From: a virus
Length of the DNA stretch: 54,228 nt
Virus record (IMG/VR): IMGVR_UViG_3300045988_069299
Coordinates: 1-54,228 of that record
Direction: 5' to 3' (one strand)
This document shows positions 451-40,812 of this stretch, one piece after another. The first letter of the stretch is position 1; each line of letters begins with the position of its first letter. Made by a program: the position numbers and the translations under genes. Below the pieces are notes generated by a model. The model was not told the origin of the DNA. It did no database searches and saw only the letters and a program-made list of their open reading frames with translations.

Positions 451-2395
451 TTTTCACTTCCTCCACTTTCAAAACCGCATCATCACTTCTGCGGAACATA
501 ATCAACTGACTGTCAACATCAGGAATCTTCCAAGGGTCAAGGCTTTCGGTATCGTCAACCATGATAGGCAATTCCACACCGCACCGCTTCTGAAACGCAT
601 TGCAAATGTCAATTTCCGTCAGAATCCTTGCTCCGTGGTTCATGTTTCGGCTGTAAGGCTCTCCACGGTATGTAAAGTCACAACATTCTTCCGTGTCACC
701 ATTCACAAGAGGTCTAAACATCCGCACAGTGCAGAAGCAAAGATACTTGTTCACATCAGCTTCCAACAGTTCGTTCTTCTTCCGGCTGAATTTCTTTAAC
801 AGGTCAAGCTGTGCCTGCACATCCGTAATCTTCTGTGCAATGTTCTTGCGCTCCTGTTCCAGTTCTGTGATACGCTTATCCACACTCTCGTTAATGCTTA
901 CACTCGCCAAAAACTTATCAACCACAGAAATATCATTGCGGATCTGCTCTTCATCACCTTTTAACTGGATTCTGAGAAGATTCATGTCAGTGAATTTGTG
1001 CATGGCAGCTTCTTTCTCTGCAATCTGTGACTGAATAGCTTTGTATTCTTCTGTGTTGGAAATATCCACGCTTGCCGGAATGGAATTTAAGGCATTATCA
1101 GCAATGGCAATCTCTTTTTCCAACCGCTCCACTTCATCCTCGGTCTTTTTCAGTTCCTCACGCTTATGCTCCAGTTCTTCCTGATCCGCTTTGATATGGT
1201 CAGCACAGGAAGAACCCTCTTTGGTAATCAGTTCCAGTTCATGTGCCTTATGCGTATCAAACTCCGTTCTTAACTGCTCTTTCTTCTCTTCCGGATATTC
1301 CTGTCCACAGTAGGGGCAAATCAGAGAATTTTCATCAAATTTAAGGCTTTTATTCAAATCCCAACTCTTCTTCAATTCCTGTCTCTTCTGCTCATACTGT
1401 GCGATACGCTTTTCCAGTTCCGTGATCTCTTCACGAATGGTGTCTGCCTTAAGCAACTCTTTCTGATGCTCATTCTGAATCTGATTCAGTGTTGTGCGCT
1501 TCTCTCTTCTATCCGCATCCAGTTTTTCATTTGCTTTCTGCTGCAATGCGCTCAACTGACCTTTTAACTCAATGATTCCATCAGACAGCTTATCGTAGGA
1601 AATCATGCTGTTCTGCGTATCTGTCTGCTGCTTAATGTTCTCTGACAGCTTATCCAGTAAAGCTTTCTTTTTCAGTTCCAGATCAGCAAGGTCAATATCC
1701 ACTCTCTGACGGCTCACCTCGTCAATACGGCTCGGAATTTCATCTAACAGGTCCTGCAAACCCTTGGTTCCATTTCTTCCCCTTGTGCCGTACAACTGCG
1801 TATTGCAACGCTTTTTCAGTTCATCAACCGTGCCGTCCTGCAGAACAGCCCTTAATGCTTCAAACTCCGGAAACTGATTGCAAATGTCATCATTACTGTG
1901 CTGACCAAACATATCAGCAAGAATTGCTCTCTGATCCGTTCCACCTTTCAGAAGAAGTGTCATGGCATTGATGCAAAGTGAGAACTTATCTTTTCCGCAT
2001 ACACTCTCTTCCAAAAATGCTTCAAAATCTGCTGCCTTTTTGGGAATATCATTCACATAGTAATCCGTGACATTGCCGGTAAACTCGCCTTTTTTATTGA
2101 AGTTCTGACGGCATACTTTTTTCAGAACCTTGTCTGTACCGTCAATCTCCACGGTAACTTCTGCGGTAATATCTCCGTCGATGTCATTGCCGTCCTTATC
2201 GTGCGGTCTGATTCCGGTGATCTCTCTGCCGTTCTCGTCACGGCATCCAAAAATATACTGAATTGCTCTTTTGATCGTGGACTTACCTGTTTCATTTACA
2301 CCGGAAACCTCTGTCCGGTCGTATAAATCAGTGTCCACTACGTTAGAACCATAGAATTTGCAGAAATTCTGCAAAAAGGTGTGTTTAATCCTCAT
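434..2395 (-). CDS. Rad50/SbcC/SMC-like AAA ATPase with coiled coil and zinc hook
   Basis: ATG at 2395 behind GGGAGGA. Walker A GVNETGKST, a long heptad-rich middle region with CPYCGQ, and a C-terminal Walker B-like LPIMVDDTESLD. Confidence 0.8.
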   Translation of the reverse strand: MRIKHTFLQNFCKFYGSNVVDTDLYDRTEVSGVNETGKSTIKRAIQYIFGCRDENGREITGIRPHDKDGNDIDGDITAEVTVEIDGTDKVLKKVCRQNFNKKGEFTGNVTDYYVNDIPKKAADFEAFLEESVCGKDKFSLCINAMTLLLKGGTDQRAILADMFGQHSNDDICNQFPEFEALRAVLQDGTVDELKKRCNTQLYGTRGRNGTKGLQDLLDEIPSRIDEVSRQRVDIDLADLELKKKALLDKLSENIKQQTDTQNSMISYDKLSDGIIELKGQLSALQQKANEKLDADRREKRTTLNQIQNEHQKELLKADTIREEITELEKRIAQYEQKRQELKKSWDLNKSLKFDENSLICPYCGQEYPEEKKEQLRTEFDTHKAHELELITKEGSSCADHIKADQEELEHKREELKKTEDEVERLEKEIAIADNALNSIPASVDISNTEEYKAIQSQIAEKEAAMHKFTDMNLLRIQLKGDEEQIRNDISVVDKFLASVSINESVDKRITELEQERKNIAQKITDVQAQLDLLKKFSRKKNELLEADVNKYLCFCTVRMFRPLVNGDTEECCDFTYRGEPYSRNMNHGARILTEIDICNAFQKRCGVELPIMVDDTESLDPWKIPDVDSQLIMFRRSDDAVLKVEEVKNGKSN

Positions 2396-2705
2396 TTTTC
2401 CTATCCTCCCAAAGATATAAATACAGTGAATTAACAAACATATAGATTGAGACCGGCTTGTCTGTCTCATTGATCTCCTTGTATAGCTCTGTGCTTGGGT
2501 TCATCTTATCAACAACCCACTTGATCGCCCGGTACACGCTTTCCTTGGTTGTGCTGTGTTCCTCTCCGATAATCCGGTAGATTTCAGAAAGTCTTCTGTT
2601 CCGGTTCTCAAACATCAGCGTTTCAACCTCGATGATGTACTGGAATCCCGGCAAGTACTGTTTCAGCCCCAGTTCTACCAAGATTTTTCTTATCTTCCTT
2701 TCCAT
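2385..2705 (-). CDS. Spo0A C-terminal-domain-like DNA-binding protein
   Basis: 106 aa. LGLKQYLPGFQYIIE and TTKESVYRAIKWVVDKM parallel the Spo0A effector-domain pattern (IGVPAHIKGYQYLREAI ... TTASRVERAIRHAI). Overlaps the next gene by 11 nt. Confidence 0.55.
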   Translation of the reverse strand: MERKIRKILVELGLKQYLPGFQYIIEVETLMFENRNRRLSEIYRIIGEEHSTTKESVYRAIKWVVDKMNPSTELYKEINETDKPVSIYMFVNSLYLYLWEDRKNED

Positions 2706-6544: not shown

Positions 6545-6659
6545 GTAACCCTCTCCCATCTCCTCGTGTTTCTCCTCACGAACTAAAGTAGCGAACAAAC
6601 ACATTGTAGAACATATGTTCTTAACAATCAATATATTTGACGCACGTTTTTTATTGTTG

Positions 6660-6740
6660 TAAAATATCAACAAAAGAGGGCGGTGAAAACGCCAATAAAC
6701 ACCGCCCTCGCCAGAACTTGAAGTCCCTTGAAACAAGGGA
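6660..6740 (-). terminator. right hairpin module: minus-strand terminator with the same 14-nt loop and 22-nt block as the left module
   Basis: GAGGGCGGTG (6676-6685) pairs with CACCGCCCTC (6700-6709). The loop is AAAACGCCAATAAA, the reverse complement of the left loop. On the minus strand it is followed by TTTTGTTGATATTTT. Block 6703-6724 matches 5858-5879 in inverted orientation at 21 of 22 positions. An extra hairpin TCCCTTG-AAA-CAAGGGA lies at 6724-6740. Confidence 0.55.
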
Positions 6741-6777
6741 TGTTACAAGTGTATCATGTGAAAGGGGGATAAAAAAC

Positions 6778-7569
6778 ATGATGAAAAAAGACCGAATCAA
6801 AGAAATATCGACACATCTATCAGTCAACAGAGTAAATTATATGGTAAGTTTTCGTGGGAATCTCCATGAATTTCTAAATGAACCGGACATGACGGTTTAC
6901 AAGCTTGCTGATGAAGCTAATTTGCCTTATTCTACGCTTAATTCACTACTATACGGTAATTCTAACGACACGAAGCTATCGACCGCTGTTGCGCTTGCTA
7001 GAGCCTTTGGAATCAGTGTAGATGAACTGGTAGGTTGCGGCACTATGGAAGATAAGATGTTGGAATCTGTCAAGATATGCCGCAGTCTGCCGGAACACTC
7101 TCTGTACCTTATCCGCTACTTCATCCGTCACCAAGATAAAATCTATTCCAGTCTTGAAAAATCACACAAGTATATTTCTGTCCTTAAACCGCAACTTGTG
7201 AATGGAATTATAGCCACCACAAACGCTGTAGAACCTATTTGCATAGACAAATTACCGGAAGATATAAAATCCAAGGCTTATATCGGTGTGAAAATTCCTT
7301 GCGACTACTATATGCCGTTTTATCTGCCTGGGGAAATTATTCTCCTTGCAGCGGATCGTGAACCGCAATACGGTGAACGATGTATTGTGACCAGTAATGG
7401 TGGGATATATATTGTCGTGAAAACCCATATAATTGAAGATGGTGTAAGAAAATGGAGATATGTTCCGCTCATGTCTCCGAACAGTATACTCCCGGAACAC
7501 ATAGTTGATGACATAATAGGATATGTGGTTGGTTTCGTAAACAATGACGGTGACTGGGGAATCAGATAA
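6778..7569 (+). CDS. CI-like repressor: N-terminal XRE HTH plus C-terminal S24/LexA-like domain lacking the usual Ser motif
   Basis: ATG at 6778 behind GAAAGGGGGAT. HTH pattern TVYKLADEANLPYSTLNSLLYG. The C-terminal half aligns by eye to lambda CI (VKIPCDYYMPF..LPGEIILLAADREPQYGERCIV...IVVKTH), with CDYYM where G(D/N)SM is expected. Confidence 0.7.
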   Translation: MMKKDRIKEISTHLSVNRVNYMVSFRGNLHEFLNEPDMTVYKLADEANLPYSTLNSLLYGNSNDTKLSTAVALARAFGISVDELVGCGTMEDKMLESVKICRSLPEHSLYLIRYFIRHQDKIYSSLEKSHKYISVLKPQLVNGIIATTNAVEPICIDKLPEDIKSKAYIGVKIPCDYYMPFYLPGEIILLAADREPQYGERCIVTSNGGIYIVVKTHIIEDGVRKWRYVPLMSPNSILPEHIVDDIIGYVVGFVNNDGDWGIR

Positions 7570-7576
7570 ATAGATT

Positions 7577-7610
7577 AAGAGCATGGCTTTTACACCATGC
7601 TCTTTTTTGT
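7577..7610 (+). terminator. strong rho-independent terminator after the CI-like gene
   Basis: AAGAGCATGG (7577-7586) pairs with CCATGCTCTT (7595-7604), then TTTTGTTG. Confidence 0.8.
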
Positions 7611-7632
7611 TGTTATTTCGCAAATATTTTTT

Positions 7633-7971
7633 ATGACTACTTCTGTAAATGGCAAGTTAAACCAGAACACCGATTTGACTTTAGTCAATTGTGTATCATG
7701 GGAATCTGACAATACAATTTCAAAAATAGGTAACAGAGTATTTGTAACGTTAGGCGTACAAATTACATCTGAGCAGTCTAGCGGATCATTAATTATTGCC
7801 AGTATTGCAAGGACATATTACCCTAAAACTACGTATGTTAGAGCAAATGCAGCAGGTGGTACAAATGGCGATAATCACATGCTTTATATTAATAAATCTA
7901 ATGGCGTAGTAATATTAAATCTTTCGACAGAACGGTATTATTCTGCCAGTTTCTCATACTTGGCAAATTAG
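7633..7971 (+). CDS. silent alternative tail-fibre C-terminal cassette (112 codons)
   Basis: Open frame MTTSVNGKLNQNTD...SFSYLAN with no RBS, directly behind a terminator. Shares VNGKL, encoded by the 17-bp inverted repeat, and a VNC.W motif with the expressed fibre tip. Its stop lies 1 nt from the fibre stop. Confidence 0.6.
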   Translation: MTTSVNGKLNQNTDLTLVNCVSWESDNTISKIGNRVFVTLGVQITSEQSSGSLIIASIARTYYPKTTYVRANAAGGTNGDNHMLYINKSNGVVILNLSTERYYSASFSYLAN

Positions 7972-8234
7972 GCTATTTATATGCTACAACAAAATTTAGG
8001 GTAAATGTTGCGTCATTACTTACAGTAGCAATTTGATATGCATAAAAATTACCATTAATTGAAAGACGCACATTAACAGCCCAATTACAGTTTACGAACA
8101 CGCCAAATACGTTAGCATTACTTGGTAATCCAAAGTCAGATAAAGATCCTAATAATGACTGTCTATTTGTCACTAGCAGAGTAACAGATGTTGATATTGA
8201 TGCAAATTTCAAACCACTTAACTTGCCATTTACA
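7644..8234. mobile_element. candidate invertible DNA segment bounded by a perfect 17-bp inverted repeat
   Basis: TGTAAATGGCAAGTTAA at 7644-7660 and its reverse complement at 8218-8234. Both copies sit in the same codon phase (V N G K L) of the two convergent reading frames. Confidence 0.6.
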
Positions 8235-9061
8235 TCACTTAATCCCCCAGTGATAGTCCCATCGCCAATAGTCGAAATATCGGTAGTTCCGATAAGGCCT
8301 ATAAGTGATTTAAGGTTTTTTACAGCCAGTTTAAGTTTCCCAAAAATAGATGATAACTTTTCTCCTGTCGTTAATTCCTCTAAAGTTGTTGCTTCTTCAA
8401 ACACCGCAGTCAAATTACTACCGTCACCAGTTTTGGTCAAATAGTTTGTCAAATACGTTTTAGGAATTGCATCTATTTTTTTATCAACGCTTGTTTTGTC
8501 ATAATAATTTGTCAAATCAGAAACTTTTTTTGTAATGTATCCTACATCATTTTCTAATTCGCTAACTTTTGTTGGTATTCCTCCTGTTTGCTGTTTTGCT
8601 TGTTCCATATAATACTTTGCATTATCGGTATCTTCTCCTTCTCTTGTTCCGGTTCCACCTACGGCATAAGATTCAGCCAATACAGATTTTGCATTTGCGG
8701 ATTGCGCATAAGCAGATGCATTTGCGGATTCTACTCTAATATCTGCTAAATAATTAGGCTGAAGCATATCATCTGTTACTGATCCTGTTTTTATCGAAAA
8801 AGAATAAGTCTTATTCTTTCCAGTACCAGTCACGGATACAGCTATGGTTGCAGAATCTTCAAATGTTAATACCGGAACCATAGAACCAATATCAGCTGTA
8901 AACTGTGTTCCATCTTCTGTAGTCATGGTAATGATTCCGTCATCAGACATGGAAAAGCCAACAGGTATTTTTTTCAATGTTAAGGTCAAAAATAATTTTT
9001 TCACCGTTGTATTTTGTAATAGTAATAACACCGGTTGTTTCGTCCATAGTCCAGTCTGCAA
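7973..9061 (-). CDS. tail fibre protein, main reading frame (entered from the 8943-9233 frame at a homopolymer)
   Basis: Long ORF at the end of the tail module, rich in Ser/Thr/Gly/Asn. The portion upstream of about 8975 in this frame looks non-coding (MQTGLWTKQPVLLLL...). The N-terminus is supplied by the overlapping ORF. Confidence 0.75.
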   Translation of the reverse strand: MQTGLWTKQPVLLLLQNTTVKKLFLTLTLKKIPVGFSMSDDGIITMTTEDGTQFTADIGSMVPVLTFEDSATIAVSVTGTGKNKTYSFSIKTGSVTDDMLQPNYLADIRVESANASAYAQSANAKSVLAESYAVGGTGTREGEDTDNAKYYMEQAKQQTGGIPTKVSELENDVGYITKKVSDLTNYYDKTSVDKKIDAIPKTYLTNYLTKTGDGSNLTAVFEEATTLEELTTGEKLSSIFGKLKLAVKNLKSLIGLIGTTDISTIGDGTITGGLSDVNGKLSGLKFASISTSVTLLVTNRQSLLGSLSDFGLPSNANVFGVFVNCNWAVNVRLSINGNFYAYQIATVSNDATFTLNFVVAYK

Positions 9062-9233
9062 TGTTTCCGTTTATTGAAGACTTGTCTACTTTTAAGGCAT
9101 CCTGTGATATGATACGGTTGTCCAACGCATCAATAGCAGAATCCATCTGATTAAGATGGTATGCATCTAAATCCGTGTTTTCACTTGGATAATCTTCCCA
9201 GTTAATTCTGGTATAAACCTTATTCAACGCCAT
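8943..9233 (-). CDS. tail fibre protein, N-terminal fragment (same gene as 7973-9061, different frame)
   Basis: MALNKVYTRINWEDYPSENTDLDAYHLNQMDSAIDALDNRI is a typical fibre N-terminus. The frame ends 8 codons after a run of 7 A (plus-strand T7 at 8968-8974). Removing one A fuses it in frame to ...IEKIPVGFSMSDDG.... Confidence 0.75.
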   Translation of the reverse strand: MALNKVYTRINWEDYPSENTDLDAYHLNQMDSAIDALDNRIISQDALKVDKSSINGNIADWTMDETTGVITITKYNGEKIIFDLNIEKNTCWLFHV

Positions 9234-9402
9234 CTGCAGATACCTCGCTTTCCTCTTTCATAATCTGCATATCTGATAACTGTTTAGTCTCCGAATACAC
9301 TTCATACAGTACAAGCCTTTTCACCTCGATAGGCAACGGTGTTTGATTTAATACTGTCACAAGGTTGCTTTTTAATTTCTTAATCTCAAAGTTTGCTGCC
9401 AT
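9220..9402 (-). CDS. hypothetical protein (60 aa)
   Basis: Complete ORF between the tail-tip and fibre genes. Confidence 0.55.
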   Translation of the reverse strand: MAANFEIKKLKSNLVTVLNQTPLPIEVKRLVLYEVYSETKQLSDMQIMKEESEVSADGVE

Positions 9403-9403
9403 A

Positions 9404-9706
9404 TCAATTCTCCCTTACATAGATTTCTTTTCCTTGCTCTTCTGCATATGCATACAGATTTTTGCACAGTTCAGATACCTCATATCCGCTCTGTGCAACC
9501 ACTGTATCCGACATGTCAATAAGTTGCTTCATAAACTCTTCAAAACCATCGCCATCTTCCGTGCTAAACAATGTGGCATTTATTTCCGTAAACGTGGAAA
9601 TTCCAATGGTAAAAGCTATATATTGCTGAATTTCTTGCCTTTCTTCCATTACTTCTTTCATTGTTTTTCCAATAATCGTTTGAAGAATAAATATTTTTTT
9701 TACCAT
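9404..9706 (-). CDS. hypothetical protein (100 aa)
   Basis: Complete ORF in the tail module. Confidence 0.6.
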   Translation of the reverse strand: MVKKIFILQTIIGKTMKEVMEERQEIQQYIAFTIGISTFTEINATLFSTEDGDGFEEFMKQLIDMSDTVVAQSGYEVSELCKNLYAYAEEQGKEIYVREN

Positions 9707-34224: not shown

Positions 34225-34482
34225 ATGCAGAATATAACATTTAATGATTGTCCTTGGGCGGTAGCTTACAAGATCGACAAGAGCACACAGGACGACAGAA
34301 AAACAAAGGTAATTATTACCGCTACTTTCTCCCATCCAGACAACGCAGAAGATTTTATAAATAACTGCTTGCCAAAGAACACAAATGATAGATTTTTTAT
34401 AATTCGGCTGGCAGATCTTGAAAACTGCGAGGATGCCGACAGAATCCAGAAAGTTTCTGAATTCTATGCAAAAATTATTTAA
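34225..34482 (+). CDS. hypothetical protein (85 aa)
   Basis: AAGTGAGGTACCAAGT then ATG. First gene of the plus-strand island. Confidence 0.6.
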   Translation: MQNITFNDCPWAVAYKIDKSTQDDRKTKVIITATFSHPDNAEDFINNCLPKNTNDRFFIIRLADLENCEDADRIQKVSEFYAKII

Positions 34483-34560
34483 GCCGAAACGCTCCGATCT
34501 GGAGCGTCAGCCGCGGGATGGTCTCCCGGCTCTGATGATGGCAGACCAGAAAGGGAAAAT

Positions 34561-36010: not shown

Positions 36011-36337
36011 CAGGTCCAGGACTCGCATTGCAGAAGTGTACAGATGTTCCACGCCTTGAATCGGTCTGAAAAAATCTGCGAAAAAACTCTGAAAACGGAT
36101 TTTTCAGCTTGAAAAGTGCTACCCAGGGGGGATTAAAAATTTTTGCATTATATTTTGACGAAAAATTTTTCTTTCAAAAACCTATGAAAACGAGATTTTC
36201 GGTTGAAAATGCAGACCTACGGGGGTATCAAAAGAAACACATTAAAATTTTTTCAATACTTCGCATCTATTTATCGACAGAATATCACAAATGTGTTAAA
36301 ATTTTATAAAATTCAAAATGAAAGGGGTAATTACTCT

Positions 36338-36463
36338 ATGAAACAAAGTGGTTTAGGAATTGCTTCGATGATTTTAGGAATCATCAGTATTTTGACAGCT
36401 TGTATAGCTTTCGGAATTGTGCCGGGAATTAATTCACAACAACAATGGAAAGCGAATTACTGA
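36338..36463 (+). CDS. small membrane protein (41 aa)
   Basis: AAAGGGGTAATTACTCT then ATG. GLGIASMILGIISILTACIAFGIV is a hydrophobic core. May be a truncated remnant. Confidence 0.4.
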   Translation: MKQSGLGIASMILGIISILTACIAFGIVPGINSQQQWKANY

Positions 36464-36564
36464 AAAAGATTAAAATTCAAGCAATCAAAGAACACCTTCC
36501 TGTATCAGCAATACTGGAAAGACTTATTAAAGAATACTTGTCAAGCCTGCCTAATAACGATTAA
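36445..36564 (+). CDS. possible RHH-like fragment (39 aa)
   Basis: MESELLKKIKIQAIKEHLPVSAILERLIKEYLSSLPNND resembles the strand-helix-helix of CopG/antitoxin proteins but lacks an N-terminal part. Overlaps neighbours on both sides. Confidence 0.25.
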   Translation: MESELLKKIKIQAIKEHLPVSAILERLIKEYLSSLPNND

Positions 36565-36963
36565 ATTAGAGTTCTGAACCTCTACTGCCTGACTTGATGT
36601 ATTCATTACCGAAACTGTTGAACAACAGCATCTTGGAACGTCAATATATGCTTGTGAACTAACATTCTGTAAATTCTCTGCAGCTGCCGGAGTTACAATC
36701 ATTCTTGTGGACTGTAAAGGTTCCCCGTCTACCGCCAGTGCAAGGGAAATTTCCTCAACAGTTCCACCAGTGGGAATCTGAATGTTGCCGGAATAACTTA
36801 CAAGGAATCTTGCACGACACTGATTAGTGATACCTCTTAACTTCACAATTCCGGATCCCTCTCTATGATTGATACAGTTACTTCCATTTACGGCAGTTTC
36901 GGTAAAAGCAACGTCTGCTCCTGCTGCCACAGTCTGTAATGCTACTGCTGTATATTCAGCCAT
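36541..36963 (-). CDS. BclA-C-terminal / C1q-like beta-sandwich protein (140 aa)
   Basis: Alternating beta pattern VAAGADVAFTETAVNGS.I.H..GSGIVKL...G.Y.V.. resembles exosporium BclA C-terminal domains. Contains a CCC triplet. Confidence 0.5.
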   Translation of the reverse strand: MAEYTAVALQTVAAGADVAFTETAVNGSNCINHREGSGIVKLRGITNQCRARFLVSYSGNIQIPTGGTVEEISLALAVDGEPLQSTRMIVTPAAAENLQNVSSQAYIDVPRCCCSTVSVMNTSSQAVEVQNSNLIVIRQA

Positions 36964-37075
36964 AATAAAACCTCTCTTTCAAAATCAAAGGGGCAAACCA
37001 TATAGTCTGCCCCATGTTGTCAGTAATTCTGCATAGCAGACATAACCTTAAGGTTAAGTTACTCGATATGCAGTT

Positions 37076-37858
37076 TTAGCATCCGCAACCAGTGTTGCAA
37101 CCACATCCGCATCCGTAATATACATTAGGGTTGGGAACCTGGTATGCCGGGATGGGCGCAGGATTCACAGCGTTGATGATCTGCTGTGTCTGTGCACTCA
37201 TGGCAGTAGTCAGAAGAGCATTCTGACGATCCTGAGAAGCGGCTCTGCGCAGATCGTTGTTCTCTGCCTGCAGAGTAGCGATCTTATCCTGACATAAGTA
37301 GTCAAGGATTGCTCTTGTACCGGCGTTCTGGCTGTCGATAATATCACGAGTGTTGTTATTCATGGTGTTCTGCAATGCGCAAGTATTCGTTGCCATATTG
37401 TAGTTTACACCCTGGATAGCTTCACGGGTATCGCAGCAGCACTGTGCTAACTGTGCCTGTAAAGCGTTAGCATTCTGCATTCCTGCTACGGTGTCTGCAT
37501 TGATAGCCTGTTGGATGCCATAGCCAGTCTGTAAAATGTTGGTATTTACGCCATTAAATCCGGTAAGCATACCATTGTTTACAGCGTAGAATCCGTCACA
37601 CAGACCGTTGTTGATTCCGTCCAGTTTACCGATGATAGACTGGGTGTCGAACCCTCTTTGCAGTGCAGAATCGGTATAGTAACTGGAATTAGAGCCATTA
37701 CCGCCCCATCCATTACCGCCCCAACCTCCAAAAATCGCAAAAATTACGACTATGAACCAGAGCCATCCACCGTCACCAAATGCACCATTATTTCCGTAGC
37801 CATTTCCGGCAGCCGGAATAACAGGCATGGTAAAAGGACTGTTGTTTGTTTCAAACAT
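37076..37858 (-). CDS. membrane-anchored Gly/Asn/Gln-rich protein with CCC motif and C-terminal (GC)n tail
   Basis: GGWLWFIVVIFAIFGGWGGNGWGGNG (TM plus GW repeats), LAQCCCDTREA, and a C-terminus YYGCGCGCNTGCGC. No family recognised. Confidence 0.65.
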   Translation of the reverse strand: MFETNNSPFTMPVIPAAGNGYGNNGAFGDGGWLWFIVVIFAIFGGWGGNGWGGNGSNSSYYTDSALQRGFDTQSIIGKLDGINNGLCDGFYAVNNGMLTGFNGVNTNILQTGYGIQQAINADTVAGMQNANALQAQLAQCCCDTREAIQGVNYNMATNTCALQNTMNNNTRDIIDSQNAGTRAILDYLCQDKIATLQAENNDLRRAASQDRQNALLTTAMSAQTQQIINAVNPAPIPAYQVPNPNVYYGCGCGCNTGCGC

Positions 37859-37929
37859 ATTAGATTACCTCCATAATTTTATTCATAAAGAGGTCTCCCG
37901 GGTTTTGTGCACAAACCTCTAATATGCTG

Positions 37930-38142
37930 TTAAAAAGGAAACTGACTTTTTATCTGTCTTATTACATCATCAGGATTTATACCTTTCGTTTTGCAGATGT
38001 TTCTCGCAAGATTTTCTACTCCTTGGAAATCACCTTTTTGAGCCATCCCATAAGCGTTTTTTACCATGTCGTTAGACATGATCTGGCTGTTCCCCATCAT
38101 ATTTTGTATAAACTGTTGCGGATTCCCCATTGACTTAAGCAT
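37930..38142 (-). CDS. hypothetical Met/Asn/Gln-rich small protein (70 aa)
   Basis: Complete ORF overlapping the upstream gene by 8 nt. Confidence 0.55.
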   Translation of the reverse strand: MLKSMGNPQQFIQNMMGNSQIMSNDMVKNAYGMAQKGDFQGVENLARNICKTKGINPDDVIRQIKSQFPF

Positions 38143-38614
38143 CTACATCATCCTTTCTTTGCGATTGTGGAGTTTTCCTTTGCGTTTGCGAAGTTTTCAA
38201 CTGTTCAATCTTTTGTTCCAGTTCATCGAAACGCTTCATAAATACCGCTGTGGCTTCGTCTGATAGGTCAAATTTCGCCTTTTCTGTGTCTGGCGGTAAA
38301 TTGTTAGGGTCTGCATCTAAAACAGGCTTGTAAAGCCTTGTATAGATTTTTCCATCTGCTCCCCAGGATTTAGCATAGATCTCCGACAGGTCCTGTTTTG
38401 GGAAAAATGCTGTGTTTCCATCCATAGGAACCTCATTCGGTGCTATGCACTCTTGCGCCGGTACAATACGACCGTACATCTGTACTGTGTTTTGCTGTGG
38501 CTGTTGCATAAATTGCTGTGGTTGGAATTGCTCCTGTTGTGGCATAAACTGTCCGTACATAGGTGTTCTATACTGCGGATTGAAATAGTTCGGATTCATA
38601 ATCGGCTGCGGCAT
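38135..38614 (-). CDS. protein with Gln/Pro/Met/Phe-rich low-complexity N-terminus (159 aa)
   Basis: MPQPIMNPNYFNPQYRTPMYGQFMPQQEQFQPQQFMQQPQQ..., then a globular part and a charged tail. Confidence 0.6.
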   Translation of the reverse strand: MPQPIMNPNYFNPQYRTPMYGQFMPQQEQFQPQQFMQQPQQNTVQMYGRIVPAQECIAPNEVPMDGNTAFFPKQDLSEIYAKSWGADGKIYTRLYKPVLDADPNNLPPDTEKAKFDLSDEATAVFMKRFDELEQKIEQLKTSQTQRKTPQSQRKDDVDA

Positions 38615-38667
38615 GGCTATTCTCCCTTTCTTCCATTGATTCTATCTGTTTCGCAATTTCAACTTCA

Positions 38668-38856
38668 TCAAGTGTCTGATATGTCGGCTTGTTCATAAGT
38701 CCCAACGGACTGAAATTCATAAGCATTACCCGTTTCTCCTAAAACTTCCTCGATCACATGAACCATGATTGATTGATACTTAATCGGCACTTCCCTTGTA
38801 CGTTCTTTGCTGAATATATGTTCCAGTGTTTCATCTGAAAATTTGAATTTTCCCAT
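38668..38856 (-). CDS. hypothetical protein (62 aa)
   Basis: First ORF after the attP-like region. RBS AAGGAGGGATGACCTT then ATG. Confidence 0.55.
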   Translation of the reverse strand: MGKFKFSDETLEHIFSKERTREVPIKYQSIMVHVIEEVLGETGNAYEFQSVGTYEQADISDT

Positions 38857-39208
38857 AAGGTCATCCCTCCTTATGATTAAATTTTTGCATAAAAAAAAGA
38901 GAGTGAAAATATCATTTTCCTCTCGTTAAAATATCATTTGCATAAGGCTTTTCTATGTACCAATTATGTACCAATTTTTATTAAATTATAAAGAATTATG
39001 TTAAATTACGTTAAAGAATAAAATGTCGAAAACACTGATAAACACTGCATTTGTAAGGTTTTGTAAGATTATAAGAAAATACGTGAAATATGGTAAAATA
39101 TAACGATACCTAATTTCATATTTTTTCATCACCTCTTAAATGCCTTGATTTTACGGCATTTCTTTCTTTAAAATTTGTATTTATGTACCAATTATGTACC
39201 ACTTTAGA
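38857..39208. other. attP-like AT-rich region with candidate integrase arm-type repeats
   Basis: The 19-nt ATGTACCAATTATGTACCA occurs at 38955-38973 and 39183-39201. AAAATATCATTT x2, AAACACTG x2, and inverted repeat AATGCC...GGCATT at 39139-39160. Directly downstream of int. Confidence 0.6.
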
Positions 39209-40339
39209 TCAAATTACTTTCAAAGCATCTGCAACCATACTTATTTCTTTCTGCTTCTGGTCGTCTGTCGTGTGCACATAAAGATTCATTGTTATGCCTA
39301 TATTTGAGTGTCCCAAAAGTGTCTGTAATGTTTTTGGCATCATTCCTGCTTCAATACATCTCGTTGCAAAAGTATGTCTTAATATGTGCATTGCAATTTT
39401 TCGTATACCTGCTTTTTCACATACTTTAAAAAGCATCGTGTCGTATGTGCTATTTTTAACTGGCGTACCTTTTCTACAAACGAATACGGCATCTTTCCAC
39501 TCCAAAGATATAAAAGGTAATGACTGATTTTTCTTCTTCTGTAATTTCAACAATCGAATTGCTTCATCTGTCAATGGAATAGTACGATACCCAGATTTAC
39601 TTTTCGGGTCTCCTTTTCTCCACTCTTTAGTAGAATGTCGGTACTCCATAGTTTTAGAAATAGTCATTGTTTTTTTGCAAAAATCAATATCTTTCCATTC
39701 CAACCCAACCATTTCACCTGTTCTTAATCCTGTTTGTAATATAAAGAGATATTGATATTCATAAGGGCAACCAACTATTTCATGGCAGAATTTCTTTTGC
39801 TCTTCAATAGTAAGTGCTTCTTTCTTTTCCGACGGTTTTCCTATGTCGTACTTTACCATTTTAGTACATGGGTTTTTAGTAATTATGTCATTTTGATAGG
39901 CATAATCAAGCATATTATAAAGTGCTATCCTTGCTTGATATATTGTAGTGGTCTTATAACCGTAATCTGACATATTGTTCATAATTTGTTGACAATGCAT
40001 TGTATTTACTTCTTTCAGCAACTTATGTCCTATAACAGGAGCAATGTTTTTAATATATCTTTCTCTGTAATTTCTTACCGTATTTTGTCTTACTGTTTTC
40101 TCTTTTATAGAAATCCAGTATTCGTACCATGCGTTTACAATTATGTCTTGTGGAAAGTCAATATTGCTATGCGCATCTGAATACTGGTTATCTGCAAGCC
40201 ACTTTTGACAATCTTTTACCTTTAAAAATAATTTTTGAATACGCTTTCCATTTTTTGAAGTGTATCTTCCCACATAATATCCGTCTTTTCTTTGACTTAT
40301 TCCTTGTCCCAATTCCTTTCCTTTTAGGTCTTTCCCCAA
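39209..40339 (-). CDS. int: tyrosine integrase (Tn916/phage type with N-terminal arm-binding domain)
   Basis: C-terminal HILRHTFATRCIEAG...LLGHSNIGITMNLYVH (R..H.LRH...Y catalytic pattern). N-terminal ISQRKDGYYVGRY. Likely TTG start at 40339 behind GGAAAGGAG (track ORF extends to 40381, also a TTG). Confidence 0.9.
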   Translation of the reverse strand: MGKDLKGKELGQGISQRKDGYYVGRYTSKNGKRIQKLFLKVKDCQKWLADNQYSDAHSNIDFPQDIIVNAWYEYWISIKEKTVRQNTVRNYRERYIKNIAPVIGHKLLKEVNTMHCQQIMNNMSDYGYKTTTIYQARIALYNMLDYAYQNDIITKNPCTKMVKYDIGKPSEKKEALTIEEQKKFCHEIVGCPYEYQYLFILQTGLRTGEMVGLEWKDIDFCKKTMTISKTMEYRHSTKEWRKGDPKSKSGYRTIPLTDEAIRLLKLQKKKNQSLPFISLEWKDAVFVCRKGTPVKNSTYDTMLFKVCEKAGIRKIAMHILRHTFATRCIEAGMMPKTLQTLLGHSNIGITMNLYVHTTDDQKQKEISMVADALKVI

Positions 40340-40413
40340 AACTTTACACTCCTTTCCAATTATGAGAAAAGCCTTATGCAATCTGATATTTTATCACATA
40401 AGGCTTTAATTGT

Positions 40414-40812
40414 CTACAATTCCACATTATCAGAGATAAACTTTTCAAATTCTTTGCGCTTTATTAAACGTTTTTTTCCTACAAAAATTACAAAATTACA
40501 TCTTGGATTGTTGGAAATTTCTCTGATTTTATTTATTCCTATATTGCTGTATTCGGCAGCTTCATCAAGTGTTAGTGTTACTTTTTCCCATACAGGAACC
40601 GTTTTATTCATAACTTCTTCACCTCCGATTTTGTCTTTTATACTTTTTACTCTTCTGTTTACGGTTGCTATCGGAAGAAAAGTTTTTGCAGATATCTGTT
40701 CTAAACTCTTACCTCCTGCAAGCAACCAAAACACTTTTTCTTCCTCTTCCGTGAAATTGGCGTTCCGGAAGATTTCTTCAAGTTCTGGCTTAGTCAGTTT
40801 TGATAACTTCAT
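40414..40812 (-). CDS. fusion of a sigma/LuxR-type HTH domain and an excisionase-type HTH domain
   Basis: N-terminal half FTEEEEKVFWLLAGGKSLEQISAKTFLPIATVNRRVKSI. C-terminal half VTLTLDEAAEYSNIGINKIREISN...FVIFVGKKRLIKRKEFEKFI (Xis-like). An internal GGAGGTGAAGAAGTT then ATG could give a stand-alone Xis. Confidence 0.65.
   Translation of the reverse strand: MKLSKLTKPELEEIFRNANFTEEEEKVFWLLAGGKSLEQISAKTFLPIATVNRRVKSIKDKIGGEEVMNKTVPVWEKVTLTLDEAAEYSNIGINKIREISNNPRCNFVIFVGKKRLIKRKEFEKFISDNVEL

Follow-up and report, generated by a model that had tools for sequence, protein, structure and literature searches.

A syntenic gene cassette of animal-gut viruses that encodes a stand-alone BclA/ExsF-like jelly-roll protein

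ExsFA/BxpB and BclA/F-BclA are exosporium proteins of the Bacillus cereus group that belong to the TNF/C1q superfamily. The same jelly roll, in a protein of about the size of the stand-alone ExsFA/BxpB, is encoded by g140, one of five neighboring genes (g62, g159, g70, g260, and g140) in the IMG/VR virus record IMGVR_UViG_3300045988_069299, whose positions 1 to 54,228 were analyzed as one stretch (54,228 nucleotides [nt]; hereafter, the window). These five genes are a shortened copy of a widespread accessory gene cassette, which is autonomous and horizontally mobile. Its families were already present in PHROGs without function and one partner domain in Pfam as DUF7841; no account of the cassette as a unit was found in the literature searched. 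Compared with ExsFA/BxpB and BclA, g140 shows only 10-15% identity, has no BclA_C match, lacks a collagen stalk and a leader, carries four invariant cysteines, and is virus-encoded, including in viruses of non-sporulating hosts.

Three other groups of described systems are close in some respect. In the stalk-knob viral fibers (reovirus sigma-1, the adenovirus knob, and collagen-C1q proteins), a stalk and a knob are combined as might be expected of the helical g260 encoded beside the C1q-like g140, whereas here stalk and knob would be made as two polypeptides, and g260 has, besides its Gly/Cys tail, a hydrophobic segment of the membrane type. Lysis cassettes of phages encode single-pass membrane proteins such as the i-spanin Rz and the class III holin T of T4, and g260 would be similar to these in its short N-terminus, one predicted transmembrane segment, large C-terminal domain, conserved cysteines, and frequent location near endolysin or holin genes; however, there is no sequence similarity, separate holins are present, and g260 has four to seven conserved soluble partners. 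Among the hosts of the cassette are Gram-positive bacteria and archaea; these lack the outer membrane on which a spanin would act. Finally, pap/fim-type pilus operons have an attenuator after the major-subunit gene, much as a conserved hairpin follows one gene of the cassette and precedes those of putative minor components, but the cassette shows no homology to these operons and has no usher, chaperone, sortase, or secretion signals. Apart from the fold of g140, the cassette resembles no known system.

The five genes and the cassette to which they belong

The cassette in the window consists of the following features:
38668..38856, minus strand: g62, 62 amino acids (aa); first gene after the phage attachment site attP; open reading frame (ORF) call
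38135..38614, minus strand: g159, 159 aa; phrog_21718 (E 6e-13); N-terminus begins MPQPIMNPNYFNPQYRTPMYGQF
37930..38142, minus strand: g70, 70 aa; M/N/Q-rich and helical; ORF call
37076..37858, minus strand: g260, 260 aa; phrog_16490 (E 1e-58); the signature protein
36990..37013, minus strand: GC-rich hairpin between g260 and g140, GGGGCAGAC...GTTTGCCCC, then TTTGATTTTG
36541..36963, minus strand: g140, 140 aa; phrog_20016 (E 3e-63); contains PRCCCSTV

A sequence-only reading of the window had proposed five co-directional genes here, and all of them were found in the ORF list on the minus strand, at the positions and with the features that it gave. PHROG families were matched by three of the five (g159, g260, and g140; E 6e-13 to 3e-63), all annotated as of unknown function, and the homologues number in the thousands, as described below. 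The ratio of nonsynonymous to synonymous substitution rates (dN/dS), calculated pairwise against relatives, was 0.075-0.10 for g260 and g140 and 0.22-0.26 for g159 and g62; it was computable in five of ten comparisons, dS being saturated in the other five, and gave no value for g70. Judging from the PHROG matches, the homologues, and the dN/dS values, the five ORFs are genuine genes.

The comparison covered phage records, four contigs with a 99%-identical g260, and 80 loci taken from genomes that represent species; ORFs were called in all fetched loci, followed by iterative searches (jackhmmer for the helix-turn-helix [HTH] family). The order g159-g70-g260-beta-protein was kept in approximately 85 of 95 loci, and the genes do co-occur elsewhere as a set, the lack of which would have counted against the sequence-only reading. 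While g260 was present in 94 loci, g159 was found in 87, immediately upstream of g70/g260, and g70 in 65, placed between g159 and g260 (in the window, g159 and g70 share 8 nt at the end of g159). Homologues of g62 were limited to the closest relatives (14 loci), always immediately upstream of g159, and g62 matched no family in Pfam, PHROGs, or NCBIfam. The last gene of the order was g140 in 50 loci, and in ~40 loci its slot was taken by an unrelated Cys-rich beta-protein starting MACKPVCKLC, which often ends in Pro/Thr-rich tails. Homology between g140 and this alternative beta-protein was considered and rejected, because hhalign found none.

Additional members were found in other loci. A small HTH protein (~70 aa) of the sigma-70 region-4 type was present in 65 loci, in many of them directly upstream of the cassette. 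Some loci have a ~125-aa protein of phrog_3754, named "peptidase" in some phage records, in which putative papain-like Cys/His motifs were noticed by eye. A protein with an R/Y/D/G-rich disordered segment and a DGRFAPKG motif, sometimes joined to DUF7841, was also found, as was either a 106-aa mini HExxH protein or one that is small and helical. The full order of the cassette is therefore HTH, the ~125-aa protein (in some loci), g159, g70, g260, the hairpin, a beta-protein, the disordered-segment protein, and the HExxH or small helical protein. Scans of Pfam, NCBIfam, PHROGs, and PADLOC with the cassette partners from elsewhere yielded only PHROGs without function, DUF7841, and Sigma70_r4/GerE.

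None of the five proteins of the window matched Pfam or NCBIfam; for g260 and g140 the NCBIfam search included the exosporium-leader model TIGR03720. Nothing beyond noise came from profile searches of the PDB with the alternative beta-protein, g140, g260, and g159, and for g159 the noise was due to coiled coils. In g159, a small conserved domain lies between an N-terminus rich in Q, P, M, and F and a coiled-coil helix at the C-terminus. PADLOC gave no match at E <=0.05 for ten cassette proteins, and the only two weak ones (E 0.06 and 0.08) both concerned the disordered-segment protein of relatives. GXY collagen repeats were absent from all five sequences, and no signal peptide was seen on inspection of the sequences of the g260 partners. 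The literature on DUF7841, phage-encoded BclA, and the crAss "spike" annotation was also searched for a description of the cassette and none was found, so that the set, as had been remarked from the sequence, matches no described system in Pfam, NCBIfam, PADLOC, PDB sequences, or that literature.

The hairpin after g260 is a conserved element of the cassette. When only hairpins that have a T-rich tail and reach at least -14 kcal/mol in strength were counted, one was found after g260 in 47 of 85 loci, compared with 0/79 after g159, 0/43 after g140, 0/37 after the alternative beta-protein, and 11/150 at random positions. The sequences of the post-g260 hairpins are unrelated between lineages, indicating that the structure itself is conserved, and this argues for a terminator, attenuator, or mRNA-stabilizing element. 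Attenuation or transcript stabilization by the conserved structure would raise the level of g260 above that of the proteins encoded after it. No riboswitch or leader was found by Rfam upstream of the cassette.

Fold of g140 and sequence features of g260

The AlphaFold2 (AF2) model of g140, built with 35 homologues, is all-beta with a predicted local distance difference test score (pLDDT) of 88 and a predicted TM-score of 0.83. The top match of this model in a Foldseek search against the PDB was the C-terminal domain of F-BclA (9h38; E 1e-7, TM-score 0.74), followed by ExsFA (7r1m), BxpB (8d02), and the C-terminal domain of BclA (1wck and 2z5w), the BclA/ExsF-type matches spanning E 1e-7 to 1e-5 and TM-scores of 0.65-0.74. 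Phage fiber and spike knobs, including a cyanophage short-tail-fiber domain and the phi812 spike knob, ranked lower, and members of the TNF and C1q families came after them. Among the viral models of BFVD, the best matches were stand-alone gut-phage proteins of ~135-142 aa, one of them named "BclA protein," and then collagen-C1q proteins of Caudovirales and giant viruses. The BclA/C1q-like fold guessed from the sequence is thus confirmed structurally at the level of the predicted model, and g140 is a stand-alone jelly roll of the BclA-C/ExsF/C1q-TNF type.

This relationship was seen in structure: g140 matched nothing in Pfam up to E 1, including BclA_C (PF18573) and C1q, and the best hit of its PDB profile search was a non-significant one to cerebellin-4 (C1q; E = 1). 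The protein has no collagen-like region, no exosporium leader, and no signal peptide. Four of its cysteines (C30, C49, C113, and C114) are invariant in the 35 close homologues. The CCC triplet to which attention had been drawn is present in the window protein (PRCCCSTV), but only a CC doublet is invariant in these homologues and the third cysteine is variable. A word-indexed protein search found 3,081 clusters of g140 homologues at 90% identity.

In the g260 protein, the N-terminus is short and is followed by a hydrophobic segment with Gly/Trp flanks (residues ~32-46), then by a helical region rich in N and Q, a PxPAY motif, and a Gly/Cys tail; the protein carries GGWLWFIVVIFAIFGGWGGNGWGG, a CCC triplet, and the C-terminal tail YYGCGCGCNTGCGC. 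In an alignment of 67 sequences, C87, C141, and C142 were invariant and C140 was at least 90% conserved, while C160 and C189 were invariant among close homologues only, and the motif PFTMPVxPA was likewise kept only in close relatives. The hydrophobic segment with its Gly/Trp flanks is kept from phages of Firmicutes to Ceridwen and the crAss-like cr125_1. A full HMMER scan of 1.84 billion representatives gave a family of 2,189 representatives (50% identity) at E <=1e-3 and 1,219 at E <=1e-10, and the word-indexed search gave at least 7,996 clusters at 90% identity. Among the best 150 matches, relatives were 118-340 aa long with no large fusions. No similarity of g260 to any lysis family of Pfam or PHROGs was found, and co-variation of its C-terminal tail with the type of downstream beta-protein was sought without a clear pattern.

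Distribution and possible functions of the cassette

Almost all genome matches came from animal-gut assemblies, mostly of Lachnospiraceae, Oscillospiraceae, other Clostridia, and gut Bacilli. By tblastn, the g260 family was also found in at least 14 crAss-like phages, in the cultured Bacteroides uniformis phage C3_41T2LP, and in two viruses assigned by their records to Methanomassiliicoccales hosts; phrog_16490 is annotated in one of these two records. A Prevotella-labeled scaffold (L076) was considered as proof of a Gram-negative host but set aside, because its locus, with a GC content of 32%, may have been binned wrongly; firmer evidence comes from the crAss-like phages and the Bacteroides isolate. 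Butyrivibrio fibrisolvens, the host of Butyrivibrio virus Ceridwen, does not sporulate. In Ceridwen, the complete cassette comes immediately after the lysin gene, and for this virus no integrase or excisionase was found and only lytic growth was seen (PMC7372960). Accordingly, neither restriction to endospore-forming hosts (contradicted by the B. fibrisolvens phage, the Bacteroides and crAss-like phages, and the viruses assigned to Methanomassiliicoccales) nor confinement to temperate phages (contradicted by the integrase-less Ceridwen and the crAss-like phages) holds, and these occurrences together rule out that the function is specific to spores or lysogens.

The g260 homologue of cr125_1 retains the hydrophobic segment, the Cys tail, CCC, and PxPAY. 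It comes after a protein in which DUF7841 is joined to a disordered segment (E 8e-41), and it belongs to a cassette located after endolysin, holin, and LysB-like genes. This homologue contains two in-frame TAG codons, and such codons are also present in its neighbors among the lysis-proximal genes (L096, 3254-6526), consistent with stop-codon recoding in this phage. A preprint reportedly ties such TAG recoding to late and lytic genes, and the in-frame TAG codons of cr125_1 therefore suggest late expression.

When the closest upstream gene with a product of 200 aa or more was identified in 63 loci, it was most often an endolysin gene: there were 22 Pfam matches to cell-wall hydrolases (Amidase_2, the largest group with nine, Amidase_3, NAGPA, CHAP, NlpC/P60, GH25, and M23). 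Otherwise, it was a head gene in ~5 loci, a serine recombinase in 2-3, and a host gene in a few. Endolysin adjacency applies to roughly a third of the loci. The attachment-site (att) position, which had been regarded as the classic site of lysogenic cargo, is real in the window; yet the commonest position of the cassette is after an endolysin gene, and att adjacency is one of several contexts.

The cassette is one of the larger conserved syntenic blocks of viral genes without assigned function in animal-gut viromes. According to the record annotations it crosses both virus lineages (siphoviruses and Crassvirales) and host domains, which points to a function in the gut habitat or to a universal target such as the cytoplasmic membrane. 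A fold of the spore surface (ExsF/BclA) is thus widely used by viruses of non-spore-forming hosts. The function is directly testable in two cultured carriers, Ceridwen and C3_41T2LP.

The explanation that we tentatively favor is a membrane-anchored, Cys-rich multiprotein assembly made during lytic development. The cassette would be expressed as its own unit in the lytic cycle, and the assembly would be built on the cytoplasmic membrane of the infected cell. As its abundant subunit, g260 would be anchored by the N-terminal hydrophobic segment, with the helical domain and the Cys tail facing the cytoplasm; g140, encoded downstream of the hairpin and made in smaller amounts, would probably trimerize and serve as cap or nucleus of the assembly formed by g260, and g159 and g70 may be low-complexity adaptors. 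The target would probably be a late event at the envelope, such as progeny release or exclusion of other phages; the cytoplasmic membrane is the sole envelope layer common to Firmicutes, Bacteroidota, and archaeal hosts. The membrane is suggested by the conserved hydrophobic segment, the signal-peptide-less partners, the proximity to lysis genes, and its presence in all hosts. Synteny, purifying selection, the late expression suggested for cr125_1, the unequal dosage implied by the hairpin, and the HTH gene of the cassette's own (65 loci) are also consistent with such an assembly, as is the accessory status of the cassette, which has lost its last two genes in the window and is fragmented in another locus (L058).

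Several observations weigh against this assembly. The predicted membrane topology of g260 is read from its sequence, and the AF2 model of g260, obtained from a shallow alignment, contains only helices at a pLDDT of 37. Jelly rolls of the C1q/TNF type usually serve as binding modules outside the cell, and the fold of g140 and the Pro/Thr-rich tails of the alternative protein fit released or virion-borne proteins better than a cytoplasmic function. The phages already encode ordinary holins and endolysins. The cassette also occurs inside head modules and among recombination genes, and the link with lysis genes is therefore a tendency rather than a rule. For a 3:3 stalk-knob complex, moreover, an imbalance in expression such as that implied by the hairpin would be unnecessary.

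The main rival, which is possible although we regard it as doubtful, is a virion fiber or decoration in which g260 would form a trimeric coiled-coil stalk docked by its N-terminus on the capsid or tail, and a trimer of g140, or the alternative Cys-rich beta-protein, would be the distal knob, held by the Cys-rich tail. Binding of gut-specific ligands (e.g., mucin or cell-surface glycans) by such a fiber would explain the spread of one cassette among unrelated viruses of a shared habitat. The matches of the g140 fold to the tip of the F-BclA fibrillum, BclA, the cyanophage short-tail fiber, the phi812 knob, and collagen-C1q proteins are in line with this proposal, as are the Pro/Thr-rich tails, the location within head or tail regions of some genomes, the almost exclusive origin of the matches from animal-gut samples across host domains, and the partners without signal peptides, which would reach the outside only through lysis. 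Depositors labeled crAss-like g260 homologues "outer capsid protein/viral fiber" or "spike protein/glycoprotein," but these are unverified annotations. A strictly conserved, uniformly hydrophobic segment of the membrane type would be unusual in a virion fiber, low-complexity segments dominate four of the proteins, and the cassette is dispensable, erodes, and has a highly variable genome position, including beside att and among recombination genes.

Superinfection exclusion or another phage conflict, in which membrane-located g260 would block DNA entry or trigger abortive infection under the control of its partners, peptidases included, appears rather unlikely. It would suit a mobile accessory cassette at typical moron sites (after the lysin and next to att) that has a predicted single-pass membrane protein, its own HTH regulator, and associated peptidase-like genes, and that in prophages occupies the left end with sigma-70-like promoter matches kept inside the prophage. 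However, none of the components is matched by a PADLOC model, the exclusion proteins known so far are each encoded by one gene rather than by syntenic sets of five to eight, one architecture is kept across viruses of Firmicutes, Bacteroidota, and archaea, unlike fast-turnover conflict genes, and the in-frame TAG codons of cr125_1 suggest late expression. A more speculative proposal, to which we attach slightly less weight still, is that the gut viruses of the three host groups share one structural module in which an ExsF/BclA-like C1q trimer docks on a Cys-rich coiled coil; this module would be redox-sensitive, reduced under anoxic conditions and disulfide-crosslinked in oxygen, e.g., as a protective or adhesive coat or fiber of released virions as they pass from one animal to another.

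The sequence-only reading had proposed lysogenic-conversion cargo by which the cells or spores of the lysogen would have their surface decorated or rewired; the products would then become part of the cell surface, the spore coat, or the exosporium. The attractions of this reading are the structural closeness of g140 to ExsFA/BxpB and BclA, the spore-coat-like composition (multi-Cys and Q/N-rich, with a Tyr/Arg-rich partner protein in relatives), the att-proximal cassette in this lineage, and a Spo0A-effector-like ORF of the same phage, which was correctly recognized (2385-2705, minus strand, 106 aa; Pfam Spo0A_C, 31.2 bits against a cutoff of 25). Furthermore, one integrated relative (L093) lies beside Peptidase_U4 and an adjacent sigma-factor gene, an arrangement that on its Pfam domains resembles spoIIGA-sigE, and its host therefore probably sporulates. 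As a general function this cargo is nevertheless largely refuted, and very improbable in our view, because the full cassette is present in Ceridwen and its core genes in crAss-like, Bacteroides, and Methanomassiliicoccales-assigned viruses, an unrelated protein occupies the g140 slot in ~40 loci, and g140 has neither a collagen-like region nor a BclA_C match, with NCBIfam, TIGR03720 included, blank for g260 as well.

Integration region and neighboring genes

Other features of the window, whose main coding strand is the minus strand, are listed below:
54228 down to 41251, minus strand: methyltransferase and 3'-phosphoadenosine-5'-phosphosulfate (PAPS)-reductase genes, read as the early region
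40414..40812, minus strand: HTH-Xis fusion, 132 aa; Pfam Tn916-Xis (1e-27) and GerE (1e-3)
39209..40381, minus strand: tyrosine integrase, phrog_1 (E 5e-78); context, outside the cassette
38953..39205, no strand: attP region, with the crossover near 39110-39095
38889..38922, minus strand: bulged hairpin and T8 run between attP and the ribosome-binding site of g62
6637-7569, plus strand: repressor

After the integrase come the cassette, a plus-strand island, and then the terminase, portal, capsid, and tail genes. The att-proximal position described from the sequence is borne out in the window, with the integrase gene just upstream of the cassette and attP between them. In the HTH-Xis fusion, residues ~19-63 form a sigma-70 region-4/GerE-type HTH, which belongs to the family of regulators that precede the cassette (jackhmmer, 1e-21), and residues 69-129 form the Tn916-Xis domain.

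A 99%-identical g260 was found in four informative contexts: L091 is a phage form as in the window, L092 has a serine recombinase replacing the tyrosine integrase, and L090 and L093 are integrated prophages with the cassette at the left end, reading inward. The attP crossover was placed by aligning the window and L091 with L090, which is integrated beside host genes. It is flanked by direct repeats of TGGTACATAATTGGTACATA (38953-38975 and 39180-39200), probably integrase arm-binding sites, and sigma-70-like promoter matches directed at the cassette lie inside the attP region (39097-39068 and 39014-38985). The bulged hairpin with its T8 run is probably the terminator of the integrase transcript, and its position beyond attP is like that of the lambda sib/tI element. 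The serine-recombinase variants (L092 and L093) have a different hairpin and a T7 run at this spot, and the sequence common to all cassette variants starts at the T8 run.

Near-identical cassettes are thus combined either with a tyrosine integrase and Xis or with a serine recombinase (L091 vs. L092, ~7500-8850). The breakpoint of this swap is ~35 nt upstream of g62, and the host sites used by the two kinds of recombinase differ (L090 and L093). The left-end or att position was seen in all four relatives and in 12 other loci with an integrase within approximately three genes downstream of the cassette.

Compared with these four relatives, which are 98% identical, the window has a ~4-kb deletion. 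This deletion removed antirepressor-like genes (ORF6N and pRha/Bro-N) as well as the last two cassette genes, whose products have 210 aa and 106 aa, and cut a DUF4190/DUF4352 membrane-protein gene to its first 76 codons (36203-36430, plus strand). The 3' end of g140 is also recombinant (deletion region, 36203-36564).

No endolysin or holin was recognized at the expected post-tail position (7973-9706, minus strand), where a 362-aa ORF (7973-9061) has no Pfam match and a weak PHROG match to "kinase," and the two small ORFs upstream of it have none. The plus-strand island contains, between two of its small ORFs, a full-length match to the type II hammerhead ribozyme (34482-34550, plus strand; Rfam RF02276, 66.9 bits against a gathering threshold of 37, E 1e-12).

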